Below are positions 6,216 to 43,563 of a stretch of 64,000 nt of DNA, piece by piece; within the stretch, counting starts at the first letter, position 1; each line of letters starts with the position of its first letter. The stretch lies in the IMG/VR virus record IMGVR_UViG_3300029305_007860. One strand, given 5' to 3'. Origin of the DNA: an uncultured virus (IMG/VR IMGVR_UViG_3300029305_007860) (lineage: Duplodnaviria > Heunggongvirae > Uroviricota > Caudoviricetes). Under the pieces are notes generated by a model. It was not told the origin of the DNA, made no database searches, and saw only the letters and a list, made by a program, of their open reading frames with translations. Both the position numbers and the translations under genes were made by a program.

Positions 6216-6255
6216 AAAAATAACACCTTCTATTAGTATAGGAGGTGTTATTTTT
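6216..6255. terminator. Bidirectional terminator
   Basis: AAAAATAACACCTTCTA-ttagta-TAGGAGGTGTTATTTTT between convergent genes. Confidence 0.85.
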
Positions 6256-7508
6256 TATATTCTGTTTATTATTTGTTCTTCTTCTTTTATGTTTAGGTTT
6301 TTATCTTTAAAATGATATAATATATTGTTTTTTTCTATTTTAAACAAAGAAGAATAGAAAGTATAGTTATTGAGTCTCTCTTGTGTTGTGAAGTAAATGT
6401 TCTCGTGATATATTCCTGTATGTTTTAATAAAAAATATGCATCTTTTATAGATTTTACTGCTATTATATATTTTAGAGGATATCCTTTGAGAGATTCAAA
6501 TATTGTATTTATTTTAGGGAATAGTTGGACTTTTTTATAAACATACATATTTTCGTCGGTATAATCGTCAACAACAAAGTCCATTATTATTCCATTTTCT
6601 GAAACTAATTGATTCTCTTCGCTTTTAAAAATATAATTATCAAACGAAATATCGCTCATTTCTGGATAATTAAATACCCCTTTTGATACGTTAAAACCTT
6701 TTTTTTGAAATTCATTTGCGATATTAATTTTGTTATCATTTAGTTCTTTGCCTAGTATATCTAAAAGTTCGTCGCTTTTTCCTATATATATATTGAATTT
6801 ATAAGATATTTCGCTTCTTAGATTGGTATCAATATATTCCATTAGTTGATTTTTTCTGCTGGATTTTCTTGATATATTGTCTAAAATAAACAATACTTTT
6901 ATATCATAAGTCATTGAATTATAAAAACTTTCTGAATGGATGAAGTTTCTATAACTATCCCATTTTTTTATGAGTCTTGATTTTCTTTCGGTGTTCATAT
7001 CAGCTTCTAAAAAATATAAAGTATTACCTGATTTGATTAATCCGTCAGGCATTATATTGGATATAAAAGTAGAAATGTCTTTTTCATCGTAATATTCATC
7101 TAAATAATTTGGGTATTGTGAAACAAACTCCATAACAAATTGATTAAGAGAAATTTGATGTTTTACTTTACTTTCTTTTAACACAATTTTGCTGGTAGAA
7201 AGTAATTTTTTAAACTCTACACCATTCCAATCTAAAGGATTTATTCCAAAAATACCATATTTTTTTAAAAAGTTTATTCCTGATGAAGATATTATATAAT
7301 AGGAGTCTTCTTTATAGTATCCTACCTTTACTATCATTTTTTCCTGATTTTGTAAAGAAGACAGAGTGTTGAGGCAAGTTTTTATAGATAAATGTTCTCT
7401 TTCAAAAACCTGTTTATAAATTTGGTCGAGAGAAAGACATCTATAATGATAAAGTAATGATAATATAATATGTTTTTTCTTGTTTATTGTCATTTTTTCT
7501 TCCTCCAT
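6255..7508 (-). CDS. Replication-relaxation family protein (wHTH + PD-(D/E)xK-like)
   Basis: N-terminal LYHYRCLSLDQI wHTH, HQISLN, PDG..YFLEADMNTE..KWDSY. Confidence 0.75.
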   Translation of the reverse strand: MEEEKMTINKKKHIILSLLYHYRCLSLDQIYKQVFEREHLSIKTCLNTLSSLQNQEKMIVKVGYYKEDSYYIISSSGINFLKKYGIFGINPLDWNGVEFKKLLSTSKIVLKESKVKHQISLNQFVMEFVSQYPNYLDEYYDEKDISTFISNIMPDGLIKSGNTLYFLEADMNTERKSRLIKKWDSYRNFIHSESFYNSMTYDIKVLFILDNISRKSSRKNQLMEYIDTNLRSEISYKFNIYIGKSDELLDILGKELNDNKINIANEFQKKGFNVSKGVFNYPEMSDISFDNYIFKSEENQLVSENGIIMDFVVDDYTDENMYVYKKVQLFPKINTIFESLKGYPLKYIIAVKSIKDAYFLLKHTGIYHENIYFTTQERLNNYTFYSSLFKIEKNNILYHFKDKNLNIKEEEQIINRI

Positions 7509-12007: not shown

Positions 12008-13228
12008 ATGGCGGTAAAAGTATTTGTAAAAAAACTTCAACTAATTCCAGTTGGAGAAAAGGATGAAAAAGATAGAGTATATGAATATATACGTACTGGT
12101 ATGTATAATCAATATATTGCTTTAAATCGTTGTATGAGTGAAGTAGGGACATTATATTATCATGTAAACAAAGATATTTCTTCCGTTGAATGGAAAGAAA
12201 AATATAGAGAAATATTTCTAATGAAAAATCCTCAGTTTGATGATATAGAGCAACCTGTAGGATTAGGTATGTTTTCGTGTGTCTTTCAGAAAGTAAAAAC
12301 TGATTTTTCTACAGCATTAAAATCTGGATTAGCTAAAGGAGAAAGACAATTACCATATTATAAACGTGACTTTCCTCTAATGGTAGGTGGTAGATTTTTG
12401 AAATTTTATAATTTTCAAGATGAAAGAGATAGTTATGCACTCAGATTTGTCAATGGTATTAATTTTAAAGTATATTTAGGGTCTCGAGGACATAAAGATT
12501 ATTCTCTTGTCGAGATGTTATCGTCTCTTTCCGAAAACACATCCAAATATAAGATTGGTCAAAGTCAAATTACAATTAAAGATGGTAAAATTTTTTTGTT
12601 CCTTACATTGAAAACAGAATATGACAACTCCTATATTCCCCAAAAAAATAAAACATTAGGCGTTGCGTTGGGATATAGTAGTCCGATTATTTGTGCTTTT
12701 AATGACTCTAATGATGTTATAGAAATTGGAGATAGTGAAGAATTTATCTCTAAACGACAATATATGCAGGAGTTCTATAAAAATTTGCAGTCGTCTATAA
12801 AATCAACTAAAGGTGGAAGAGGTAGAAAACACAAATTACAAGCTCTCGAACGGTTAAAAAACAGAGAAAAAAATTTCGCAACCCATTACAATCATGAGCT
12901 GAGCAAAAAAATAGTTGAACTTGCCGTTAAACATAATACAGAATGTATTATATTGGAAAATATTAAAAAAAATAGAATAAGTGATTTTCAAGTTTTAAGA
13001 AATTGGAGCTATTATCAATTACATGAGTTTATTAAATACAAGGCAAAAGTATATGGAATAAAGGTTTTAATAGAGGATGGTATTTATAAATGTAAATGTG
13101 GATATGAAATTAAAATAGATAATGCAGATGTTTCGATTTTTAATAATAATAAATTAATCAACTGTATAAATTGTGGAGCTGATATTGAAATAGGTGCTTG
13201 TAAAGCACATAATTTAGCAATACAATAA
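12008..13228 (+). CDS. cas12f: Cas12f/TnpB-family protein, predicted nuclease-dead
   Basis: GLAKGERQLPYYKRDFPL, KGGRGRKHKLQAL, NHELSKKIV, RNWSYYQL..IKYKA and Zn-finger Cys pairs; RuvC-I GVALG (D to A), RuvC-III IEIGACKAHNLA (no D); ATG 12008 fits RBS GAGGAG. Confidence 0.88.
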   Translation: MAVKVFVKKLQLIPVGEKDEKDRVYEYIRTGMYNQYIALNRCMSEVGTLYYHVNKDISSVEWKEKYREIFLMKNPQFDDIEQPVGLGMFSCVFQKVKTDFSTALKSGLAKGERQLPYYKRDFPLMVGGRFLKFYNFQDERDSYALRFVNGINFKVYLGSRGHKDYSLVEMLSSLSENTSKYKIGQSQITIKDGKIFLFLTLKTEYDNSYIPQKNKTLGVALGYSSPIICAFNDSNDVIEIGDSEEFISKRQYMQEFYKNLQSSIKSTKGGRGRKHKLQALERLKNREKNFATHYNHELSKKIVELAVKHNTECIILENIKKNRISDFQVLRNWSYYQLHEFIKYKAKVYGIKVLIEDGIYKCKCGYEIKIDNADVSIFNNNKLINCINCGADIEIGACKAHNLAIQ

Positions 13229-13234
13229 AATATA

Positions 13235-13354
13235 AAGGGTAGATTTGACTGCCTAAGTCTGAGGTAAGAGTCTCGTTTTTGAAGATTCTATAACACACTC
13301 GGAAAATTCTTGTTTGATGGGTTAGAACCATATAAAATATCAAGGATATCAAAC
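13235..13354 (+). ncRNA. Cas12f-type tracrRNA/scaffold fused to the first repeat
   Basis: Stem GGGTAG/CTGCCT with loop ATTTGA complementary to TCAAA at the repeat 3' end (pseudoknot); CTGAG/CTCGG and AGAGTCT/AGATTCT stems; TTCTTG..ATGG pairs with CCAT..CAAGGA of repeat 1. Confidence 0.75.
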
Positions 13355-13419
13355 CTCCTTTCTTTATACTTGTGAAAATATCAGTTTTAGAGCCATATAA
13401 AATATCATAGTTATCTCTT
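13319..13419 (+). CRISPR. Mini-CRISPR: two 36-nt repeats, one 29-nt spacer
   Basis: R1 GGGTTAGAACCATATAAAATATCAAGGATATCAAAC (13319-54), spacer CTCCTTTCTTTATACTTGTGAAAATATCA (13355-83), R2 GTTTTAGAGCCATATAAAATATCATAGTTATCTCTT (13384-419); 21/24 identity in the 5' part, 26/36 overall. Confidence 0.75.
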
Positions 13420-13430
13420 TAAGAGCATTA

Positions 13431-13461
13431 AAAAGAACACTCAATAGCGAGTGTTCTTTTT
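13431..13461 (+). terminator. Terminator closing the guide-RNA locus
   Basis: AAAAGAACACTC-aatagc-GAGTGTTCTTTTT. Confidence 0.85.
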
Positions 13462-13532
13462 CGTTATACTATTATGTAAAAATTTCTTACCCAAGCAAAG
13501 AAAAGGTAGCTTTGCAAATAAAATAAAAGGAG
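13462..13532 (+). promoter_or_regulatory. Conserved leader copy 3
   Basis: CGTTATACTATTATGTA at 13462-78; stem GCAAAG/CTTTGC, loop AAAAGGTAG at 13495-13515. Confidence 0.8.
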
Positions 13533-13543
13533 CGTGAGTATAT

Positions 13544-16390
13544 ATGGGTAAAAATGTAATATATGTAGGTGGTACAAATAATGTAAGTCGTTGTAATAAG
13601 GCAAGAAAATATGGCATAAAGGTTTCTGATATTACTATTGAGGCATTTTCAAGAACTACAGTTACAAAAGAAGCAATTAAATATTATAAGTATGATAAGG
13701 ACGTAACTTTAGAGGATACGGATTTATTTATCGACGAGAAGATGTCCGAATTATATTTTCCTAATGATTTAGTAAGGAGATTAAATCATGAAGAGGTTTT
13801 GTCTATTGTACATCGTTATCTTGAATTTGATTCAAGAAAAGCATATCCTTGTTCGTGTATTGATTTTGAGTTTGGAGGACAAACTCTTTCATATAAACCT
13901 CATTTTATTTATTATAGTGAAGAGCAGGTTTATGGGAAAGGGAAAAAAGGAATTATTAATGTCCCTGTTGTAGAAGTAGTTACTATGACTGCCGGTGCTC
14001 AAAAATTTACTACTGGTAACAAATATGGTTCTGCTAAAGATATAGTATCTTTGCATCATAATTTGGACGGATTAGGGCTTTTGATGGCTGGTAAACATTT
14101 ATTAAAAGGGAAATCTGGTATCGTAAGGTGCTGTGCTGATAGCTTAAAGACTTCTCTTGATAGTTCGGATGATTATTCTAGACCTTTTGTTGAAGCTGAT
14201 ACGGATAATTCTGGTGCTAAAAGTTCCACAAATCGTTGCTGGTTTGAAGTATTCTTTTCTGAAAATGGGAAAATCATTCCTTTGAATAAAACAGGATATT
14301 ATAAAGATTTAGAAAAGAATCAAAAAATCGTATATGATAATAGGAAACTTTTTCCGCAATATTTAGAAACTCTCAATAACTTTCTTATAGGAAAAAACAG
14401 TTGCTCTGATAGTACATGTGTGAAGTGCGATTTCTATGAGTTATGTAAGTATAATCATCAGCCTGTGAGAAAAGATGAAAATGTTATTGAAAAGAAAGAA
14501 GCGGTGGAGCCATCGTTAAACATGCAACAAAGAATGGTATGTGACTTTAAGGAAGGGATATGTTGTGTGGATGCAGGTCCGGGTTCCGGAAAAACTCAGT
14601 GCATGGCATATCGTATTTCTAAGTTATTGTGTGAAGGGACTCTTCCAGAAGAAATATTAGTAATGTCTTTTAGTAAATCAGCTGTCAAGGTTATTACTAA
14701 TCGTGTTAAATTTTTCGTTCATGATGTCTATGGGCTGTACCATATTGATACTGAAAAAATTAAGATTGCCACTTTTAATTCTCTTGGAAATGAGTTGATA
14801 GTAAAATATTACAAAGACTTGGGTTATAGTGATATTCCGGAAATGATTGATGAAGTAGAAATGTTTCATAGAGTACTATCGGCTATTGATTTTGAAAATC
14901 CATGTGAAGGATTTGATTATAAAAACTATAAAATGAAAGGATTTAGCAACAGTATAAAAGGTGGAGTAGTGTCTGAAATAACCTCTGAAATTAAGTATAT
15001 TAGAGAAAATGATATTACTAAAGAGCAATATAAGAATATTGCTACTGAAAAAGGTTATAATGAGAATCAGATTAACTATATTTGGGAAACCAATAATAGA
15101 TATACAGATATTTTATTAAAAAATAATCTTATTGATTATTCGGACCAGTGTTATCAGATATTACGTCTAATTGATTCTATAAATCCAGATGCAATTACTT
15201 CTACTTATAGATATAGTCATATTATTGTAGATGAATTTCAAGATTCTAATGACTTTCAAATGGTATTTTTGTCGGAGCTTATGAACACGGCTTGTTTTAA
15301 AAGTCTTATGGTAGTAGGCGATGATGCTCAGGCTATATATGGTTTTAGAGGAACTACACCTGAAAATATTATCAATTTTACTAAAAAGATAAATATTCCT
15401 ATAGAAGTAAAGAATTTTACTCTTGAAAGAAATTATCGTTCTACAGAAGAGATTGTATCTTTAAGTAATGAAATCTTATCTCACAATAAAAATAAGATTC
15501 AAAAAACATTAACTTCTCACATGGGAGTTTCAGGAAACAAACCGATATTTAAATCTTTTGAAAAGGATTCTATGGAAATAAGCTTTATATGTGATAATAT
15601 AGAGAAACTTATTTCTAACGGGGTAGAAAAGAACCAGATAGCTATAATTTGCTCAAAGAAAATTGCCCTAAAAAAGATATCTAAAGAACTTTCAAAAAGG
15701 GGAATCTTGTCTCAATATGATATGCCAGAACGTTTGCTGGATAATTCAAGAGTTAGAGCTGGGATAGGTTTTTGTAATTTTGTTTCAGATACAAAAGGAA
15801 CCAAAGGGCTTCTTGAATATCTTAATGAAGTATATAATGATACTTTATTTGAAAAGTTCTCGCCTTTGCGTATTCAGTCTTTGCTTGAAACAGCAAGAGA
15901 AGACTTTATAACATATTATACTCCTTTATCCTTAGAGGAACAAAAAGAGTTTGTGTTGAACGCCTTGACTCTTTTGGATGATGGAACAGATGCGGTTTAT
16001 ACAGACTTTTTAGAACGCCTTATATCCAAAACTAAGTATAATATAAATAATCTTCTTGATTATGTTAGAGATTTCTATGAGCTTGATGTAGATGCTACAG
16101 CAGAAAAGACAGGTCAATATGACGCTGTATCTATTGTTACTGCTCATTCTTCAAAGGGAAAAGAATGGGAATATGTATTTGTATCTCTTACTAATTTTGA
16201 AGATGTTCCTTGTAAAAGTGAGGAAGAAAAAGAAGAAATACGAAGATTAATATTTGTTGCATGTACAAGAGCCAAGTATGGACTTATGGTTACTACTTTA
16301 AGAAATAAGAACAAAGATGGAGATTTTATTCCTGAGAATCCTTGGTATAAAGAATTAAAAGATTATAATTCTTTTAACAACTTAGATTAA
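13544..16390 (+). CDS. UvrD/PcrA-family SF1 helicase with ~310-aa N-terminal domain
   Basis: AGPGSGKT, VDEFQD, VGDDAQAIYGFRG, LERNYRST, TAHSSKGKEW, FVACTRAK. Confidence 0.92.
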   Translation: MGKNVIYVGGTNNVSRCNKARKYGIKVSDITIEAFSRTTVTKEAIKYYKYDKDVTLEDTDLFIDEKMSELYFPNDLVRRLNHEEVLSIVHRYLEFDSRKAYPCSCIDFEFGGQTLSYKPHFIYYSEEQVYGKGKKGIINVPVVEVVTMTAGAQKFTTGNKYGSAKDIVSLHHNLDGLGLLMAGKHLLKGKSGIVRCCADSLKTSLDSSDDYSRPFVEADTDNSGAKSSTNRCWFEVFFSENGKIIPLNKTGYYKDLEKNQKIVYDNRKLFPQYLETLNNFLIGKNSCSDSTCVKCDFYELCKYNHQPVRKDENVIEKKEAVEPSLNMQQRMVCDFKEGICCVDAGPGSGKTQCMAYRISKLLCEGTLPEEILVMSFSKSAVKVITNRVKFFVHDVYGLYHIDTEKIKIATFNSLGNELIVKYYKDLGYSDIPEMIDEVEMFHRVLSAIDFENPCEGFDYKNYKMKGFSNSIKGGVVSEITSEIKYIRENDITKEQYKNIATEKGYNENQINYIWETNNRYTDILLKNNLIDYSDQCYQILRLIDSINPDAITSTYRYSHIIVDEFQDSNDFQMVFLSELMNTACFKSLMVVGDDAQAIYGFRGTTPENIINFTKKINIPIEVKNFTLERNYRSTEEIVSLSNEILSHNKNKIQKTLTSHMGVSGNKPIFKSFEKDSMEISFICDNIEKLISNGVEKNQIAIICSKKIALKKISKELSKRGILSQYDMPERLLDNSRVRAGIGFCNFVSDTKGTKGLLEYLNEVYNDTLFEKFSPLRIQSLLETAREDFITYYTPLSLEEQKEFVLNALTLLDDGTDAVYTDFLERLISKTKYNINNLLDYVRDFYELDVDATAEKTGQYDAVSIVTAHSSKGKEWEYVFVSLTNFEDVPCKSEEEKEEIRRLIFVACTRAKYGLMVTTLRNKNKDGDFIPENPWYKELKDYNSFNNLD

Positions 16391-23852: not shown

Positions 23853-24845
23853 TTAACCAAATAAGTTATAACTGATTTCGTATAACTTTCCATCTTCTTT
23901 GTTGTATTTTATAAATCTTCCATCATCTCCCAAGGCTCGATTCCTTATTCTTTCGAATGTAGTAATAAGGAATATATTGAGTTTTGACCCTGTTACAATG
24001 TTTTGTGCTAATGTAAATGCTAAATCATCATTATCCGTAATAAATACTAACATAGGAATTTTTTTAGTATCATTGAAATATCTCATCCATACTCTTGTAC
24101 AAAGTAATCCTTCCCACATTCTTATTTTTTTACGGATATTATCTATATTATCCTCCTTTCTTATAGTATCAAATATCATATATTCGTTTATACCATTAGC
24201 ATCTACAAATCCATAGTATGCATTGCATCTTAGAAATTCTTCTCTTAATGAAAATACTGGTTTTGGTTCAAAACTAATCATCTGAACTTTTGAGGTAATC
24301 ATATCTAAGTAAGTTTCATTCAGCATAATTTGAGATTCGATATTTTTTATACTTGTAAGATTATCTCCTGCTTCCCACTGTATAAACAATCTGTCTGAAT
24401 ATTCATCTAATATATATTTACCGCCTTGTTTGAGACAATAGAATAATTTTGCATCTGAAGGTTTTGCAATGTAATTTCCCGGCTTTCCAGAGCCCATTAT
24501 AAAAAATGCATTTATCATTCCAACACCGAGTAAATTTGTTATTCTACTTCTTGTTTCTTCAATACCCCTGCTATCACAAAATCTTTCTATCTGGTCTATA
24601 GTAGAAAATCTTGCTGTATAGATGTATTCAATTATTTGTATGTCTTCGTTGTCTACTGTCCCATTGTTTACTAACGCCATAATAGGAGTTTTTGCAACAG
24701 TTGAAAAATTATCTTTTAGAAATTGCTGATAATAATTTCTTTTTGTTTCTCTTTGACCTATAATATCTGTGTTTTTTATGTATATCATAGGTTTTCTTCC
24801 ACTTTCCTCTTTTGAAGATGTTTCTAATGCTCTATTATTATCCAT
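23853..24845 (-). CDS. Degenerate replication-relaxation-like (wHTH + nuclease-fold) protein
   Basis: IIEYIYTARFSTIDQI resembles the 6255-7508 N-terminus; C-terminal PMLVFITD; catalytic PD/ExD not evident. Confidence 0.5.
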   Translation of the reverse strand: MDNNRALETSSKEESGRKPMIYIKNTDIIGQRETKRNYYQQFLKDNFSTVAKTPIMALVNNGTVDNEDIQIIEYIYTARFSTIDQIERFCDSRGIEETRSRITNLLGVGMINAFFIMGSGKPGNYIAKPSDAKLFYCLKQGGKYILDEYSDRLFIQWEAGDNLTSIKNIESQIMLNETYLDMITSKVQMISFEPKPVFSLREEFLRCNAYYGFVDANGINEYMIFDTIRKEDNIDNIRKKIRMWEGLLCTRVWMRYFNDTKKIPMLVFITDNDDLAFTLAQNIVTGSKLNIFLITTFERIRNRALGDDGRFIKYNKEDGKLYEISYNLFG

Positions 24846-37891: not shown

Positions 37892-40800
37892 TTATTCTGA
37901 GTCGTCCTTAACTAATCTTTTTTTATTTAATATTACCATTCCGCCAACTAAGAGACATCCCATAACACCCATAAGAGCTATTATAGGGATTATAGGGGAA
38001 TTATCTCCTGTTCTTGGAACATCTTTAACAACAACTGCCTGACTGTCGCTGTTAATATCCTCATGAAGACCTATTACTACTCCTTTATCAAGAGTATAAA
38101 TCTTTTCAAAAACAACTAATGTCTTCTCATTAAGACCTGTAGTATCAAAAGTAAATTCTACATTTACAGTTCCATCTTGAGTTTCAGGTGTGAATTCAAC
38201 CTTTGACGTAATATTCTTTCCGTCTTTAGTAACTGCTGGCATATTGGTTGAACGGTCATAAATAATACCTTCAACAACATAAGTCTCTCCTGCTGTTAAA
38301 TTCTCATAACCAATTTCATCTACAACTGTTACAACTGAATTAACCGGAACCTCTTTAACTCCACCGTCTTTATTAGTAGCTTTGGTACAAAGCTTAGGGA
38401 AATTAATACTCTGGTCCTTGTTGTTTATGTCAGCATGAGTAAAGATGAGTAAGTCATCATAATACATGTACTCATAACATACTATTGTTTTACCCTGTAA
38501 AGATGATGCGTCAAATTTAAACTCAATATCTACTTCTCCTTCGGATTTCTCAGGAGTAAATGTAGTCTGTCCTCTAACTTCTTTTCCGTTATCAAGGAAC
38601 GGAACCGCTTTTCCATTCTCATCCGTAGTCATAAGAATACCTTTTATAGTGTATTCCTCGCCCGGAATAAGGTCTCTATAGAAGAATGTATCATAAATCA
38701 CAACTTCCTTGTCCGGATAAGCAGTATGAGAACCCGTCTCATCATCTCTAGCAGTAGTATGTCCGCTTGGAGCAGTCACAGTCTGGTATTCATCATTAAT
38801 ATCAGCATGAACAGCAAACTCTATATCATCGTAATAAACTGTTTCAAATGCAACGATATCTGAATATGTACCGTCTTCCTTTAATAACCCAGCCTTAATA
38901 CCATCGAATTTAAACTCTACTTCTACGACTCCACTTGTATTTTCAGGAGTAAATGTTACAGAAGCAGTAACTTCTTTATCATCATTCATTAATGGCTTGT
39001 TAGTGTCTTTATTCATAAGAACACCAACTATTTCATATTCCTCGCCCACAATAAGGTTTTCATAAACAACCGTATCAATAAGAGTAATATCGTCATCCAC
39101 ACATGTTAAGTGAATTTCTGTGTCTTTATCAACAAGGGTTGTCTTTAAATCAGGGAACTCTATAGTCTGCTCATCGTCGTTTATATCAGAATGAGTGGCA
39201 ACCTGTTTTCCGTTGTAATATATATCCTCAAATACTACCACAGATTTACCCTGTAATAAACTTGCATCAAACGTAAACTCAACTTCTACAGTACCTGAAG
39301 CCTTTTCAGCAACAAAAGTCTTAGATGAGGTAATCTTATTTCCTTCAGAATCAAGAAGTGGCTCTCCTGAAGACTTATCCATAATGGTACCCATTACTGT
39401 ATAAGTCTTACCATCTATAAGATTTTCATAAGATACTTTATCAACTATAGTAGTTTTCTTATTAGCCGGACTGATGTTTTCTCCAGTCACACTATCTTTT
39501 GCAGTTGTTCCAACCTCAGGGAAGTGAATACTCTGGTCTTCATCATTTATATCCACGTGTGAAGCATATAGCTTACCGTTATAATATAAGTTTTCAAAAA
39601 CAACGATTGTCTCTCCTGCAAGAAGAGATGCATTAAACGATGGGAATGTAACATCAACGCTTCCGTCCGGGTCCACAGGTGTAAAGTATTTAACAGCTGT
39701 AATCACGTTACCATTTTCATCAAGTAGAGCTTCTCCCGTAGCCTTGTCAATAAGCTTTCCTTCAAGCTTATACTCCTCTCCTACGCTGAGTCCCTGATAT
39801 TCAACGGTATCAACTACTACTACCTCTTCATCCGGGAATGCAAGATTGGTTTCGGTTCCAATATCCCATGCTTTTGTACTAAGACCGGCAAAATAACCTG
39901 TCTGATTAATATCTGTTATATCATCATGTTTTGCTATATAAGATGTACTAGCAATACTTCCATCTGGATTAAGGAAGGTATTTGACGATGTATCTCCTGC
40001 ATAAAGATATTCGTATATAACAAATGATTCTCCTTCAAAGCCTGTAGCATCGAAATTAAATTCTACATCTACTTCCCCACATTTTTCCTGTTTACTAGCC
40101 ACATAATTTGAATCTACAGTAAACACCTTGCATGATATGATGAATTTTCCATCATTATCTTTTAATGCTTCTCCTGTAGCCTTATCTACAAGAATTCCCC
40201 ATGCTGTATATTTCTTTCCGGCTGTCAGATACTTATAAGAAATAGTATCAACCACAGTTACATCATTATCCGCGATGGACATATGTGTATTGGATTCTTT
40301 ATCCCATTCAGTTGTACTGATTTCCGGTACAGGAACATTAGATATTGTTCCGGCTGAAGCTGTCACTCCATCTTCTGTTACGGTAAATTCATATGGTACT
40401 ATAAGCTGTAATCCTTCATTTGCCGTACATGGAAGCTCTTCTAATCGGTATGTACCATAAGGTAAAGCTCCTACATTATCATCAACTGTAACCGCTGTTT
40501 CTGAACCCGAGAACCATATTCCTGTCTGGTTAAGACCGTCATAATGTCCGTCTGCATCAGGTACCGCATTATCGTTTCCGTTTGTATTGGTACTGTGTGC
40601 TATTGTTTCGGTACTAAACGCACCATTTGAATCAGTTACAATAATATGACTTTCTACCACATTTCCATCATCATCAAGATACGAAAGTCTAAATGGAATT
40701 TTAGACATTGTCTGTCTTGTCTCGTAATTTACCTTCGTAAAGGTAAATCCGCCTCTCTCCGGATTCTCTGATACAAGTATCTCATGTCCTCCCTGTAACG

Positions 40801-43315
40801 ATGGGAGATTTCCGGTTGATGAGGTTATCTGTCTTATATACAATCCGTTTACCGCTGTATTTCCTTCGGTATCTGTTAATGTACAGTCAGCCTTATATCC
40901 GTCCGGTGCCTTCGTCTCTTCTATTGTGATTGTTCCGAGGGGAAGATAGGCTTTTCCTGTGCTGTCTAAATACAATGCATCACCGCTGACTTTGTACTTA
41001 TCTTCTAAACCACATCTATAAAAATCGTATGTTGCGTTGTATTGTGTTTCCAGAACCCACGTTCTTTCCGGATTAGCAGGAAGACTCTGAACTGTGTCAT
41101 AATAACCTGCATAATACTTAATGGTAAACTGTGCTCCTGCAAGGGAAGGACCTGCCTTCACATTTCCCTCTGAATCCTCTTTATAAATCTGAATAACAAC
41201 AGGGTCATTTCCCGGCTTATCCTTAACGGTAACCACCTGTTTCTCCGAATAATTATCCGAAGTTATCTGAATATATGTAGGATTAGGGTTAAGCTCGTAA
41301 GACCCGTTATCCGGAGCTTTTGTTTCCTTAATCATGTACCAGCCAAGAGGAAGCTCTGAAAGGGTTGTCTTAGTGAGGTCTGTTCCTGTAGCATCTGCCT
41401 CAGAAGAATTGTACTTTGAATATGTAACAACTCCCGTACCTGCATCATCAGCACCCTTGTTATCCGCTATTCTGAACTTTCCTACCCTGTCAGCTGTGGA
41501 AGTGTCTGCCTGTGATGTAACGGCATATACTTCATATTCCGCTCCTGTTAAATCATAACAGCTGTTATCATCTGTCACTTCCGGATATAATGATACTTTA
41601 ATAAGTCCCATCGAACCTGTCTTTAACTCTGATGCATAAAGGGTTGAAGAAAGGGATGCAGACTGGTTGTAATTGCCAACTACAACGTCCTGATATCCGC
41701 TTGCCCTAAATATTCTTCCGACCGGAATGAAAAGCTCTCCGTTTGTCATTCCGGCAACCATGGCTGTTCCTGACTCTACATTAAGGTCTAACACCTTACC
41801 GTCAGTAAGTTCAGAATAAGGTATTGTAATGTATGCATCCTGATAAAAGCTCTTTCCAAGCCACGCCGTACCGTCGACGGGGTCAACAAGGTTTACATCA
41901 TTATTAGATAATCCATGATATTCCACGGATATATTTCTTACCGTATTACTGCTTCCCTCAGATACTGTAAAGTAGTCATAGTATCCGTTTTTGGAAGTGT
42001 CAAAGTTGCAAGTAGTCTCAGTTGTGTGGGAATATGAAATATTACCTGTTGTTCCCGATGCCGATGCGGATTTAAGAAGCTGAGTCTCTACTCCTGTGCT
42101 TTCAAGACGAACACAGATTTCTACATTTCCTGAAGAATCTTTGTATGGTGACCAGTCAAAGTCACCATTCTGGGAACCGGTTGGAAGTCCCTCACTCCAG
42201 CTTCCGTCTGACTTCTTTACCCAGTACGTATATTTTATAGACTTATTCTTCTGAGATGCCTGATTTCCTGCATCAAGACCTTCCCAATAATTGCCTGTTG
42301 CCACTGCCTGATTGTAAACATAATCAGCAAGCTCTACCAAATATTCATAACATGCATTAACGGATGTCGTATGTGCCGGATTAACCTTACTTTCTACGGA
42401 AGATATATCGCTTCCTGATGCCTTGTGTATCGCAGTAGCACATACCGCCGCCGCTTCTGCCTCTGTCATTTCATAAAACGCACCTGCGACCATCAATCCT
42501 TGCTTTGCTACGCCATCAATGACATATACTCCATAGGTACCCCCATAATCAAGGTCTCTTCCTGTCCCAATTCCGAAAAACTGATATGCGTTAGCTGAAC
42601 CAGAACCGCCCGAGTAAGCAAACGGCATAATGCCCTGATATTTCATCGTTTTCTTACCTTCGGCAGTCGAAAAATCAGTTTCAAATACTTCTGTAAATAC
42701 AGTAGATGTTGTCGGAGCCGGTTCGGTAGGTTCAGCACAATATACACTAGGAACTTCTCCGTCATCAGATACAAAATATAAAAATGAATGATTCTCGTTC
42801 CAATATGAGCCTGTTCCACCGAGCACCTGACTGATGTAACTATACGAGTTGCCTCCTATTGTCCATGAATAAGAAGAAACACTTCCTCTGTCCGCATTAA
42901 TTTCATGAACCACAGGTATATCCTCCTGAATAAATACCTGTACACCCTGACTTTCTATATCTTGTCCTTCTGTTTCTGAAATCAGCGTTGTTTCCTCAGT
43001 GCTATTTTCCGTACTTATCTCTTCTGTTGTAATTTCCTCTGCTGTTTCTTCCTGTGTTTCCGTTTCCTCCGTTGTTACCTCCTCTGTAGATAACTCAAGA
43101 ATTTCTTCCGAATCCGATTCCTCTGTCGAGACAGCTTCCGTAGTTACTTCTGTTGTCTCTTCTACGGAAAGTCCTGTTTCGGATTCCGTTGTCTCTGCCT
43201 CCGTATAGTTACCGGGGGCGACTTTTTCCAGCGAATTACTTACATTATTTAGTGGCGTAACACTCATTATCGCACTTATTATTAATGCAAGAATACGGGT
43301 TTTCAATTTTGTCAT
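37892..43315 (-). CDS. Sortase-anchored adhesin with putative thioester, SpaA/CnaB and six T-Q ester (VaFE) domains
   Basis: Signal peptide from MTKLK, Glu/Thr linker, VYCAEP, GAEY/GAQF..ETKAPD, six HxDIxxxxQ motifs, VPRTG + TM + basic tail. Confidence 0.88.
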   Translation of the reverse strand: MTKLKTRILALIISAIMSVTPLNNVSNSLEKVAPGNYTEAETTESETGLSVEETTEVTTEAVSTEESDSEEILELSTEEVTTEETETQEETAEEITTEEISTENSTEETTLISETEGQDIESQGVQVFIQEDIPVVHEINADRGSVSSYSWTIGGNSYSYISQVLGGTGSYWNENHSFLYFVSDDGEVPSVYCAEPTEPAPTTSTVFTEVFETDFSTAEGKKTMKYQGIMPFAYSGGSGSANAYQFFGIGTGRDLDYGGTYGVYVIDGVAKQGLMVAGAFYEMTEAEAAAVCATAIHKASGSDISSVESKVNPAHTTSVNACYEYLVELADYVYNQAVATGNYWEGLDAGNQASQKNKSIKYTYWVKKSDGSWSEGLPTGSQNGDFDWSPYKDSSGNVEICVRLESTGVETQLLKSASASGTTGNISYSHTTETTCNFDTSKNGYYDYFTVSEGSSNTVRNISVEYHGLSNNDVNLVDPVDGTAWLGKSFYQDAYITIPYSELTDGKVLDLNVESGTAMVAGMTNGELFIPVGRIFRASGYQDVVVGNYNQSASLSSTLYASELKTGSMGLIKVSLYPEVTDDNSCYDLTGAEYEVYAVTSQADTSTADRVGKFRIADNKGADDAGTGVVTYSKYNSSEADATGTDLTKTTLSELPLGWYMIKETKAPDNGSYELNPNPTYIQITSDNYSEKQVVTVKDKPGNDPVVIQIYKEDSEGNVKAGPSLAGAQFTIKYYAGYYDTVQSLPANPERTWVLETQYNATYDFYRCGLEDKYKVSGDALYLDSTGKAYLPLGTITIEETKAPDGYKADCTLTDTEGNTAVNGLYIRQITSSTGNLPSLQGGHEILVSENPERGGFTFTKVNYETRQTMSKIPFRLSYLDDDGNVVESHIIVTDSNGAFSTETIAHSTNTNGNDNAVPDADGHYDGLNQTGIWFSGSETAVTVDDNVGALPYGTYRLEELPCTANEGLQLIVPYEFTVTEDGVTASAGTISNVPVPEISTTEWDKESNTHMSIADNDVTVVDTISYKYLTAGKKYTAWGILVDKATGEALKDNDGKFIISCKVFTVDSNYVASKQEKCGEVDVEFNFDATGFEGESFVIYEYLYAGDTSSNTFLNPDGSIASTSYIAKHDDITDINQTGYFAGLSTKAWDIGTETNLAFPDEEVVVVDTVEYQGLSVGEEYKLEGKLIDKATGEALLDENGNVITAVKYFTPVDPDGSVDVTFPSFNASLLAGETIVVFENLYYNGKLYASHVDINDEDQSIHFPEVGTTAKDSVTGENISPANKKTTIVDKVSYENLIDGKTYTVMGTIMDKSSGEPLLDSEGNKITSSKTFVAEKASGTVEVEFTFDASLLQGKSVVVFEDIYYNGKQVATHSDINDDEQTIEFPDLKTTLVDKDTEIHLTCVDDDITLIDTVVYENLIVGEEYEIVGVLMNKDTNKPLMNDDKEVTASVTFTPENTSGVVEVEFKFDGIKAGLLKEDGTYSDIVAFETVYYDDIEFAVHADINDEYQTVTAPSGHTTARDDETGSHTAYPDKEVVIYDTFFYRDLIPGEEYTIKGILMTTDENGKAVPFLDNGKEVRGQTTFTPEKSEGEVDIEFKFDASSLQGKTIVCYEYMYYDDLLIFTHADINNKDQSINFPKLCTKATNKDGGVKEVPVNSVVTVVDEIGYENLTAGETYVVEGIIYDRSTNMPAVTKDGKNITSKVEFTPETQDGTVNVEFTFDTTGLNEKTLVVFEKIYTLDKGVVIGLHEDINSDSQAVVVKDVPRTGDNSPIIPIIALMGVMGCLLVGGMVILNKKRLVKDDSE

Positions 43316-43563
43316 TCTTTTTACTCTTCCTTTCCTTTTTATTTTTGCTGTTATTCCTGCCGTATCAGGCTTTTTACAGCAAGCAAAGTATAACATATTT
43401 GGTAATTACTTACAATACAGAAAATACGGTTTTCATATATTAAATTTTTGTTTTTACTATTTTTATTTTTAAATTATGATATCTTTGGTTTATTAAAAAT
43501 AATATATAGATTTTTGTAAGTTTTTATTTTATAATTATATAAAACAATAAAAGGGGGAATTGT

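Follow-up and report, generated by a model that had tools for sequence, protein, structure and literature searches.

The window, a 64,000-nt stretch of DNA taken from a 117-kb contig, carries a gene for a Cas12f predicted to be nuclease-dead, followed on the same strand by a tracr-like scaffold and a CRISPR array with one spacer (Table 1). We read this locus as the CRISPR module of a mobile element, which would act in conflicts between elements by Cas12m-like silencing through DNA binding (probability roughly 0.57); possibly, the module is also directed against host defence. The guide in the window is one acquired spacer and not an instance of a rule by which the clade targets untranslated regions (UTRs).

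Table 1. Features of the Cas12f locus in the window
Feature	Position	Strand	Remarks
Cas12f, predicted nuclease-dead	12008..13228	+	406 aa; 2 aa longer if translation began at an in-frame TTG (12002)
tracr-like scaffold	13237..13318	+	two conserved stems; anti-repeat (~13303-13313) pairs with repeat 1
CRISPR repeat 1	13319..13354	+	36 nt; 3' end intact, directly 5' of the guide
Only spacer	13355..13383	+	29 nt; 13355-13363 correspond to the 16S rRNA 3' tail (anti-Shine-Dalgarno)
CRISPR repeat 2 (trailer repeat)	13384..13419	+	36 nt; degenerate at its 3' end
Terminator-like hairpin	13430..13461	+	13-bp perfect inverted repeat, then a T run

The effector, its guide RNA and its clade

PADLOC assigned the effector gene to Cas12f (7e-73), and the closest solved relatives of its product are RhCas12f (1.8e-56; PDB 9NZP, as identified in PMC13186708) and CnCas12f1 (8HR5; 5e-55). 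The latter was also the top Foldseek match of a structure model with a pLDDT of 86. Alignment of the RuvC triad showed Ala220 in place of the RuvC-I aspartate, a retained RuvC-II glutamate (Glu317) and Gly396 in place of the RuvC-III aspartate, while the ORF is intact and the zinc-finger cysteines and the RuvC-III helix are retained. Judged by its sequence, the effector would be a Cas12f by descent that has become catalytically dead and, because its RuvC is dead, silences rather than cuts. As to the type V-F features, the Cas12f sequence and fold and a tracrRNA-anti-repeat with an array are present, and an intact D-E-D triad is absent. Section 8 of PMC13186708 names D77, R117 and R119 as the PAM-reading residues of RhCas12f; the corresponding positions read G, G and R in the window protein (two of three changed) and GPR in most of the clade.

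In a FastTree of 123 proteins, the dead ones cluster as a single group of 40 (SH support 100); P0117, P0041, P0070 and L105 were left out as truncated or poorly aligned (the L105 protein is truncated). The RuvC-I aspartate is missing in all 40 proteins of this group and the RuvC-III aspartate in 39.

The scaffold occurs once in the window. Alignment of 12 dead-clade scaffolds revealed 26 predicted pairs, 14 of them with compensatory changes, the anti-repeat duplex included; folded alone, the window scaffold did no better than shuffled sequences (z -0.85). Since it abuts repeat 1 directly, a natural single-guide-like transcript is possible. The length and 3' end of repeat 1 match the repeats of homologous arrays. 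The hairpin was not among the hits of a consensus terminator scan, an Rfam scan of the window gave no matches, and a promoter scan found 14 sites at 15.7 expected.

That the array holds a single guide, as the earlier note had it, is true of the window contig and of a contig from run X1, which covers 13237-13564 with 0 differences and the same spacer (X1 may be the source sample). It is not true of run X6, in which the scaffold and repeat 1 are duplicated with 84 other letters in between, an arrangement that fits a second guide unit in a sister strain. Because homologous arrays are multi-spacer and X6 carries this duplicated unit, the single guide of the window is a reduced state of a multi-guide system. 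Reduction might have gone further, to a decaying relic that lost the spacers of a formerly multi-spacer array by recombination and is now functionless. Repeats that are unlike each other, the one spacer and the failure to find a target would agree with decay, whereas the intact ORF with its zinc-finger cysteines, the covarying pairs kept in the scaffold and a loss of the catalytic aspartate that is clade-wide and old, with no recent decay, make a relic quite improbable.

The spacer, its Shine-Dalgarno motif and the search for its target

The reverse complement of the spacer terminates in AAAGGAG and the PAM-proximal seed is anti-Shine-Dalgarno (SD), as stated in the earlier note. The first 9 nt match the 16S 3' tail of Lachnospiraceae perfectly (3 genomes); the 16S-end context of this 9-mer was shared by 10 of 12 fetched loci, and Rfam recognised 16S in 3 of 4 scanned. 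An origin of the spacer in an rRNA operon was rejected: agreement with the 16S tail in the 3 Lachnospiraceae genomes is confined to these 9 nt and then amounts to 12-13/29. Three Lachnospiraceae operons (L220, L221, L224) have 5S rRNA and tRNAs between 16S and 23S.

AAAGGAG on either strand is expected in about 1.2% of random 29-mers, and the chance of at least one occurrence among 47 clade spacers is 43% anywhere in the spacer and about 5% if the motif must start at positions 1-4 in antisense. In a background of 1.07 Mb, made up of loci fetched without using the SD match, the 9-mer has a frequency of 1.4e-5 per position per strand. A perfect anti-SD at the very 5' end is thus unusual, yet it was chosen post hoc and is not compelling.

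We then looked at where such motifs lie in this background. AGAAAGGAG sites stood ahead of a plausible start codon in 17/30 cases and deep in coding sequence in 7/30; for AAAGGAG the corresponding counts were 144/314 and 82/314. Because the 9-mer marks a ribosome-binding site (RBS) in 17/30 background cases, derivation of the protospacer from an RBS region appears slightly more probable than not. Of the earlier suggestion that the target is the 5' UTR of one gene, the RBS region therefore stands as plausible by both motif counts; against the suggestion as a whole speak the lack of a target and the openness of the spacer, which is stop-free in 3/6 frames.

One of the open frames reads the motif as Lys-Gly codons, and the SD look could accordingly be a coincidence in a coding protospacer, with AAA-GGA-G encoding Lys-Gly-Glu/Asp; this matter is separate from that of the mechanism. 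Among 141 background AAAGGAG sites at which this frame is open over 7 upstream codons, 47 lie in frame in coding sequence and 35 at an RBS, and the AGAAAGGAG sites deep in coding sequence point the same way. The 17/30 share of RBS sites argues against coincidence, as do a stop codon immediately 5' of the SD in a different frame, as at an operon junction, and a coding-wobble pattern of the spacer that retrieved 0 viral contigs from IMG/VR. We hold a coding origin to be plausible, if less probable than an RBS origin. The codon-versus-intergenic score of the spacer is -0.17, and the estimated coding fraction of dead-clade spacers is 0.66 (95% 0.26-1.0), the same as for active-clade spacers; neither value favours one origin over the other.

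Searches revealed no target for the window spacer in the window (64 kb of the 117-kb contig), IMG/VR, PLSDB, INPHARED or 401 Lachnospiraceae genomes. The window has no second full match, as had been noted before; the best partial match is 21/29 and the longest 5' seed, of 10 nt, lies within a coding sequence. In IMG/VR, the 5' 18 nt of the spacer detected 17 loci (best 24/29, none with more than 19 contiguous nt). A start codon follows 3-14 nt past the SD in 4 of these 17, and 3 of the 4 are one TnpB-like gene. The 3' 18 nt detected 2 IMG/VR loci, both mismatched in the 5' part, and both spacer ends together 1 locus (20/29). The spacer was unmatched in PLSDB, the 90 INPHARED records all had E values of 1 or worse, and a 24-nt pattern with up to 2 mismatches gave 0 matches in the 401 Lachnospiraceae genomes.

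BLAST of 301 Lachnospiraceae genomes gave matches at E<=0.05 in 45 genomes, and the 39 loci examined were all at chance level; these large searches scored 2-3 candidates per genome, and a positive control in one genome recovered a 33/34 protospacer. The best of the 39 loci, an RBS ahead of a gene which we take to be histidinol-dehydrogenase-like, matched at 19/20 and at 22/29 overall; its E value of 0.04 per genome over 301 genomes is that of chance, and it was rejected.

Guides at homologous loci and their targets

Among 90 loci fetched, 10 encode the dead-clade protein type, of which 7 are distinct (L061-L063 repeat L018, L043 and L019). The distinct loci are three IMG/VR phage contigs (40-253 kb), one Lachnospiraceae MAG contig and three metagenome contigs; two of them, L094 and L105, have RecG or ParM in common with the window. 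All seven (L018, L019, L043, L045, L064, L094, L105) have arrays, which range from 2 to about 16 spacers, and the scaffold-array unit is present several times in 5 of the 7. The window spacer recurs in none of them. Of 46 non-redundant homologous spacers, a count that excludes 7 putative spacers found subsequently, 0 contain AAAGGAG or AAGGAG in either orientation; one of the 46 contains an internal antisense AGGAG and one a sense GGAGG. The spacers at homologous loci are thus numerous, unrelated and free of SD bias, which argues against a UTR-directed regulator.

The arrays of the phage contigs (L018:11797-12540, L019, L043:11665-12720) have highly degenerate repeats, yet several spacers are common to the phages with 1-4 changes, as though these arrays retained an old guide set. 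A separate IS605-type TnpB-like gene, recognised by eye, lies between two dead-Cas12f array units (L018:12718-13967). Large gut phage contigs with active-type Cas12f (L020-L044) have mini-arrays ranging from two spacers to none, some with only a scaffold remnant.

Three homologous spacers gave matches above the level of shuffled spacer controls (20-21/30). The spacer L018:11899 matches, in antisense, the coding sequence of a helicase in a rival phage of 38 kb at 28/30, both mismatches falling on third codon positions. The spacer L018:12473 matches at 26/30, in sense, a gene for a 178-aa protein in 1 of 401 Lachnospiraceae genomes, and the spacer L043:11946 matches the same gene in antisense at 25/30 (24/30 for its L018 allele); a second hit of this kind has an expectation of 2e-6. 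Being inexact, the matched genes are relatives of the true targets.

The gene for the 178-aa protein overlaps the end of a gene for an AAA_21 ATPase (PADLOC AbiLi, 1.5e-41) and lies beside hsdR (L129:238-1955, G012:C88). Homologues were found in 15/251 Lachnospiraceae genomes. The protein had no match in Pfam, PADLOC, NCBIfam or PHROG, and an Atlas look-up returned 30 matches without a common family, with RloB as just a 17% lead. The AbiLi-like ATPase and its 178-aa partner form a candidate uncharacterised defence pair, the defence role of the partner being suggested by its ATPase neighbour.

All three targets found lie inside coding sequence, which again argues against a regulator of UTRs, with the qualification that they belong to one IMG/VR phage lineage (L018/G403/G404) and that the search was biased: coding targets are easier to detect in diverged relatives, and the search that led to the helicase could return coding matches only. 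Nor did a consistent PAM emerge, the flanks of the three targets being TTG, ATA and TCT. The differing flanks, the two changed PAM-reading residues and a seed identical to the 16S tail would suit a broad anti-SD guide, which with its 9-nt seed and a relaxed PAM would dim many strongly translated genes, or whose RNA would pair with SD sites on mRNA. We consider such a guide very improbable: 0/46 other clade guides behave in this way, the plasmid's own host would be burdened, and characterised Cas12f proteins make 20-bp R-loops on DNA.

For the plasmid-type arrays (L064, L094, L105) no credible target was found; with E values of 0.002-0.004 per genome across 271 genomes, two 25/30 matches of L064 were rejected as chance. 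Array 1 of L018 gave nothing credible besides one true match against phages, plasmids and 61 relatives, the L043 spacers had no credible match in plasmids and the L045 spacers none in their own genome. No self-targets were seen in two phage records, and another back-translated pattern retrieved just the arrays themselves. Three spacers of active Cas12f match their own genome or related loci (L048:2625 and L054:11046-11079; L056:12435 and L056:8597; L082:4956 and L099:2044), and two of these three matches have C-rich 5' flanks.

These comparisons bear on a dedicated RNA-guided repressor of the TldR kind, with one fixed guide against the 5' UTR of one gene on the host or on the remainder of the replicon. 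Such a repressor would account for the one spacer with its degenerate trailer repeat and the hairpin behind it, for the perfect 9-nt anti-SD at the 5' end of the guide and for the identical spacer in X1, if that run is not itself the source sample; the contig is 117 kb long, of which 64 kb were read, and guides of array-linked dCas12f sometimes match promoters, according to Hoffmann et al. (PMC13472631). Against it stand the absence of a candidate gene from the 401 Lachnospiraceae genomes (24 nt, up to 2 mismatches), the chance level of the best BLAST locus in 301 genomes, a guide common to no homologous locus, the count of 0/46 for AAGGAG and the second unit in X6, and we regard a dedicated repressor as unlikely.

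The earlier preference for regulation rather than immunity holds insofar as a dead effector silences, while the homologous guides and targets lean against a UTR regulator. Regulation versus immunity is a false choice, because silencing by binding is itself interference in Cas12m. A guide against an RBS region fits silencing in conflicts and dedicated regulation equally and so separates neither.

Comparison with known systems and proposed role

The type V-F proteins RhCas12f (9NZP) and CnCas12f1 (8HR5) resemble the window system in sequence, fold and size, in the order of gene, tracr and array, and in having no adaptation genes nearby; the window protein differs from both in lacking two of three RuvC residues and in the replacement of D77 and R117. 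The window type has 36-nt repeats and 29-30-nt spacers, whereas many active relatives have repeats of about 30 nt and longer spacers. The array-associated dCas12f of Hoffmann et al. 2026 (PMC13472631, Extended Data Fig. 1a,b) likewise lie beside arrays, lack rpoE and are proposed to repress. In that paper, the guide of the example, from a Chitinophagaceae genome, targets a promoter, and the proteins are described as C-terminally truncated, whereas our clade is found on Bacillota plasmids and phages, has coding targets as far as found and retains the zinc finger and the RuvC-III helix. The two groups may share members.

Earlier papers already note inactivated branches of Cas12f (PMC10691335), repeated loss of RuvC in type V (PMC12669027) and array-linked dCas12f with promoter-targeting guides (PMC13472631). 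Among the papers listed in searches of open-access literature, we found no report of a Bacillota plasmid and phage clade of dead Cas12f aimed at defence or rival-phage genes; supplements may list the clade.

Cas12m (type V-M) interferes with phages and plasmids by binding promoter or coding DNA without cleavage (PMC11013384), and the likeness to it lies in the proposed interference by DNA binding without cleavage. It needs no tracrRNA, whereas the window system has a tracr-like scaffold, and it is structurally distant (Foldseek ranks 41-49, 8-10% identity). The dCas12f-sigmaE activators and TldR are comparable insofar as a dead protein of the TnpB/Cas12f family would control transcription with a short guide. 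The dCas12f-sigmaE systems have an adjacent rpoE with a C-terminal extension and, in place of the lost array, a fused single guide; the window has no sigma factor (no sigma domain in 41 window ORFs scanned with Pfam), two full-length repeats and relatives with longer arrays. TldR proteins are TnpB-derived and use an omega-RNA without CRISPR repeats, whereas the window protein is Cas12f-derived and has CRISPR repeats, and its relatives' spacers are variable. The window system would work like Cas12m and descends from Cas12f, outside both V-M and the sigmaE-linked group.

An ecological parallel may be type IV-A3, in which, as reported (bioRxiv 10.1101/2023.06.23.546257), a conjugative plasmid gains spacers in trans and represses rivals transcriptionally. 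The proposed role is the same; the proteins are unrelated, as IV-A3 uses a multi-subunit Class 1 complex with DinG.

In the silencing mechanism that we propose, the dead Cas12f would dimerise on its RNA and load the scaffold-repeat-spacer RNA. By analogy with Cas12m and dCas12f, this complex would sit on matching dsDNA and block transcription or replication without cutting, and a roadblock just 5' of the start codon of a foreign or host gene would silence well. Spacers would be acquired, as in type IV-A3, from defence loci and from the DNA of rival phages and plasmids; the adaptation machinery would be the host's, because no cas1 or cas2 was seen among the scanned window ORFs.

More tentatively, the Bacillota dead-Cas12f clade on conjugative megaplasmids and large phages might serve as reprogrammable CRISPRi counter-defence against host anti-phage operons and rivals, with the window guide acting at the RBS of its target. 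If true, a dead Cas12f that is borne by phages and plasmids and silences host defence would amount to programmable counter-defence, and its spacers would indicate defence genes important in gut Lachnospiraceae, here the unnamed partner of the AbiL-like ATPase, which was matched twice. The naturally dead 406-aa effector, with its 118-nt scaffold-repeat and altered PAM residues, is also a candidate for a compact CRISPRi tool. The anti-SD guide by itself, as one spacer with no target, carries less weight.

The gene content of the window (VirD4-type coupling protein, Replic_Relax, ParA, ParM-like protein, DnaE, TopA, RecD2) resembles that of a conjugative plasmid. The sequence occurs in animal faecal metagenomes, with no RNA data set listed among those that contain it, and we infer its host family from relatives. 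An IMG/VR search with ParM for related elements found none. The neighbours of the Cas12f gene encode RecG, a 209-aa orphan and a UvrD-like helicase (13544-16390), the latter with a 320-aa N-terminal extension that contains a cysteine cluster and has no Pfam match. Replic_Relax is encoded at 6255-7508, and a similar-looking ORF without a Pfam match lies on the minus strand at 23853-24845. A surface protein of 1834 aa with six TQ ester-bond domains is encoded at 37892-43396. Two near-identical 35-nt stretches that contain an RBS lie in inverted orientation 17 kb apart, at ~45496 (+) and 62920 (-).
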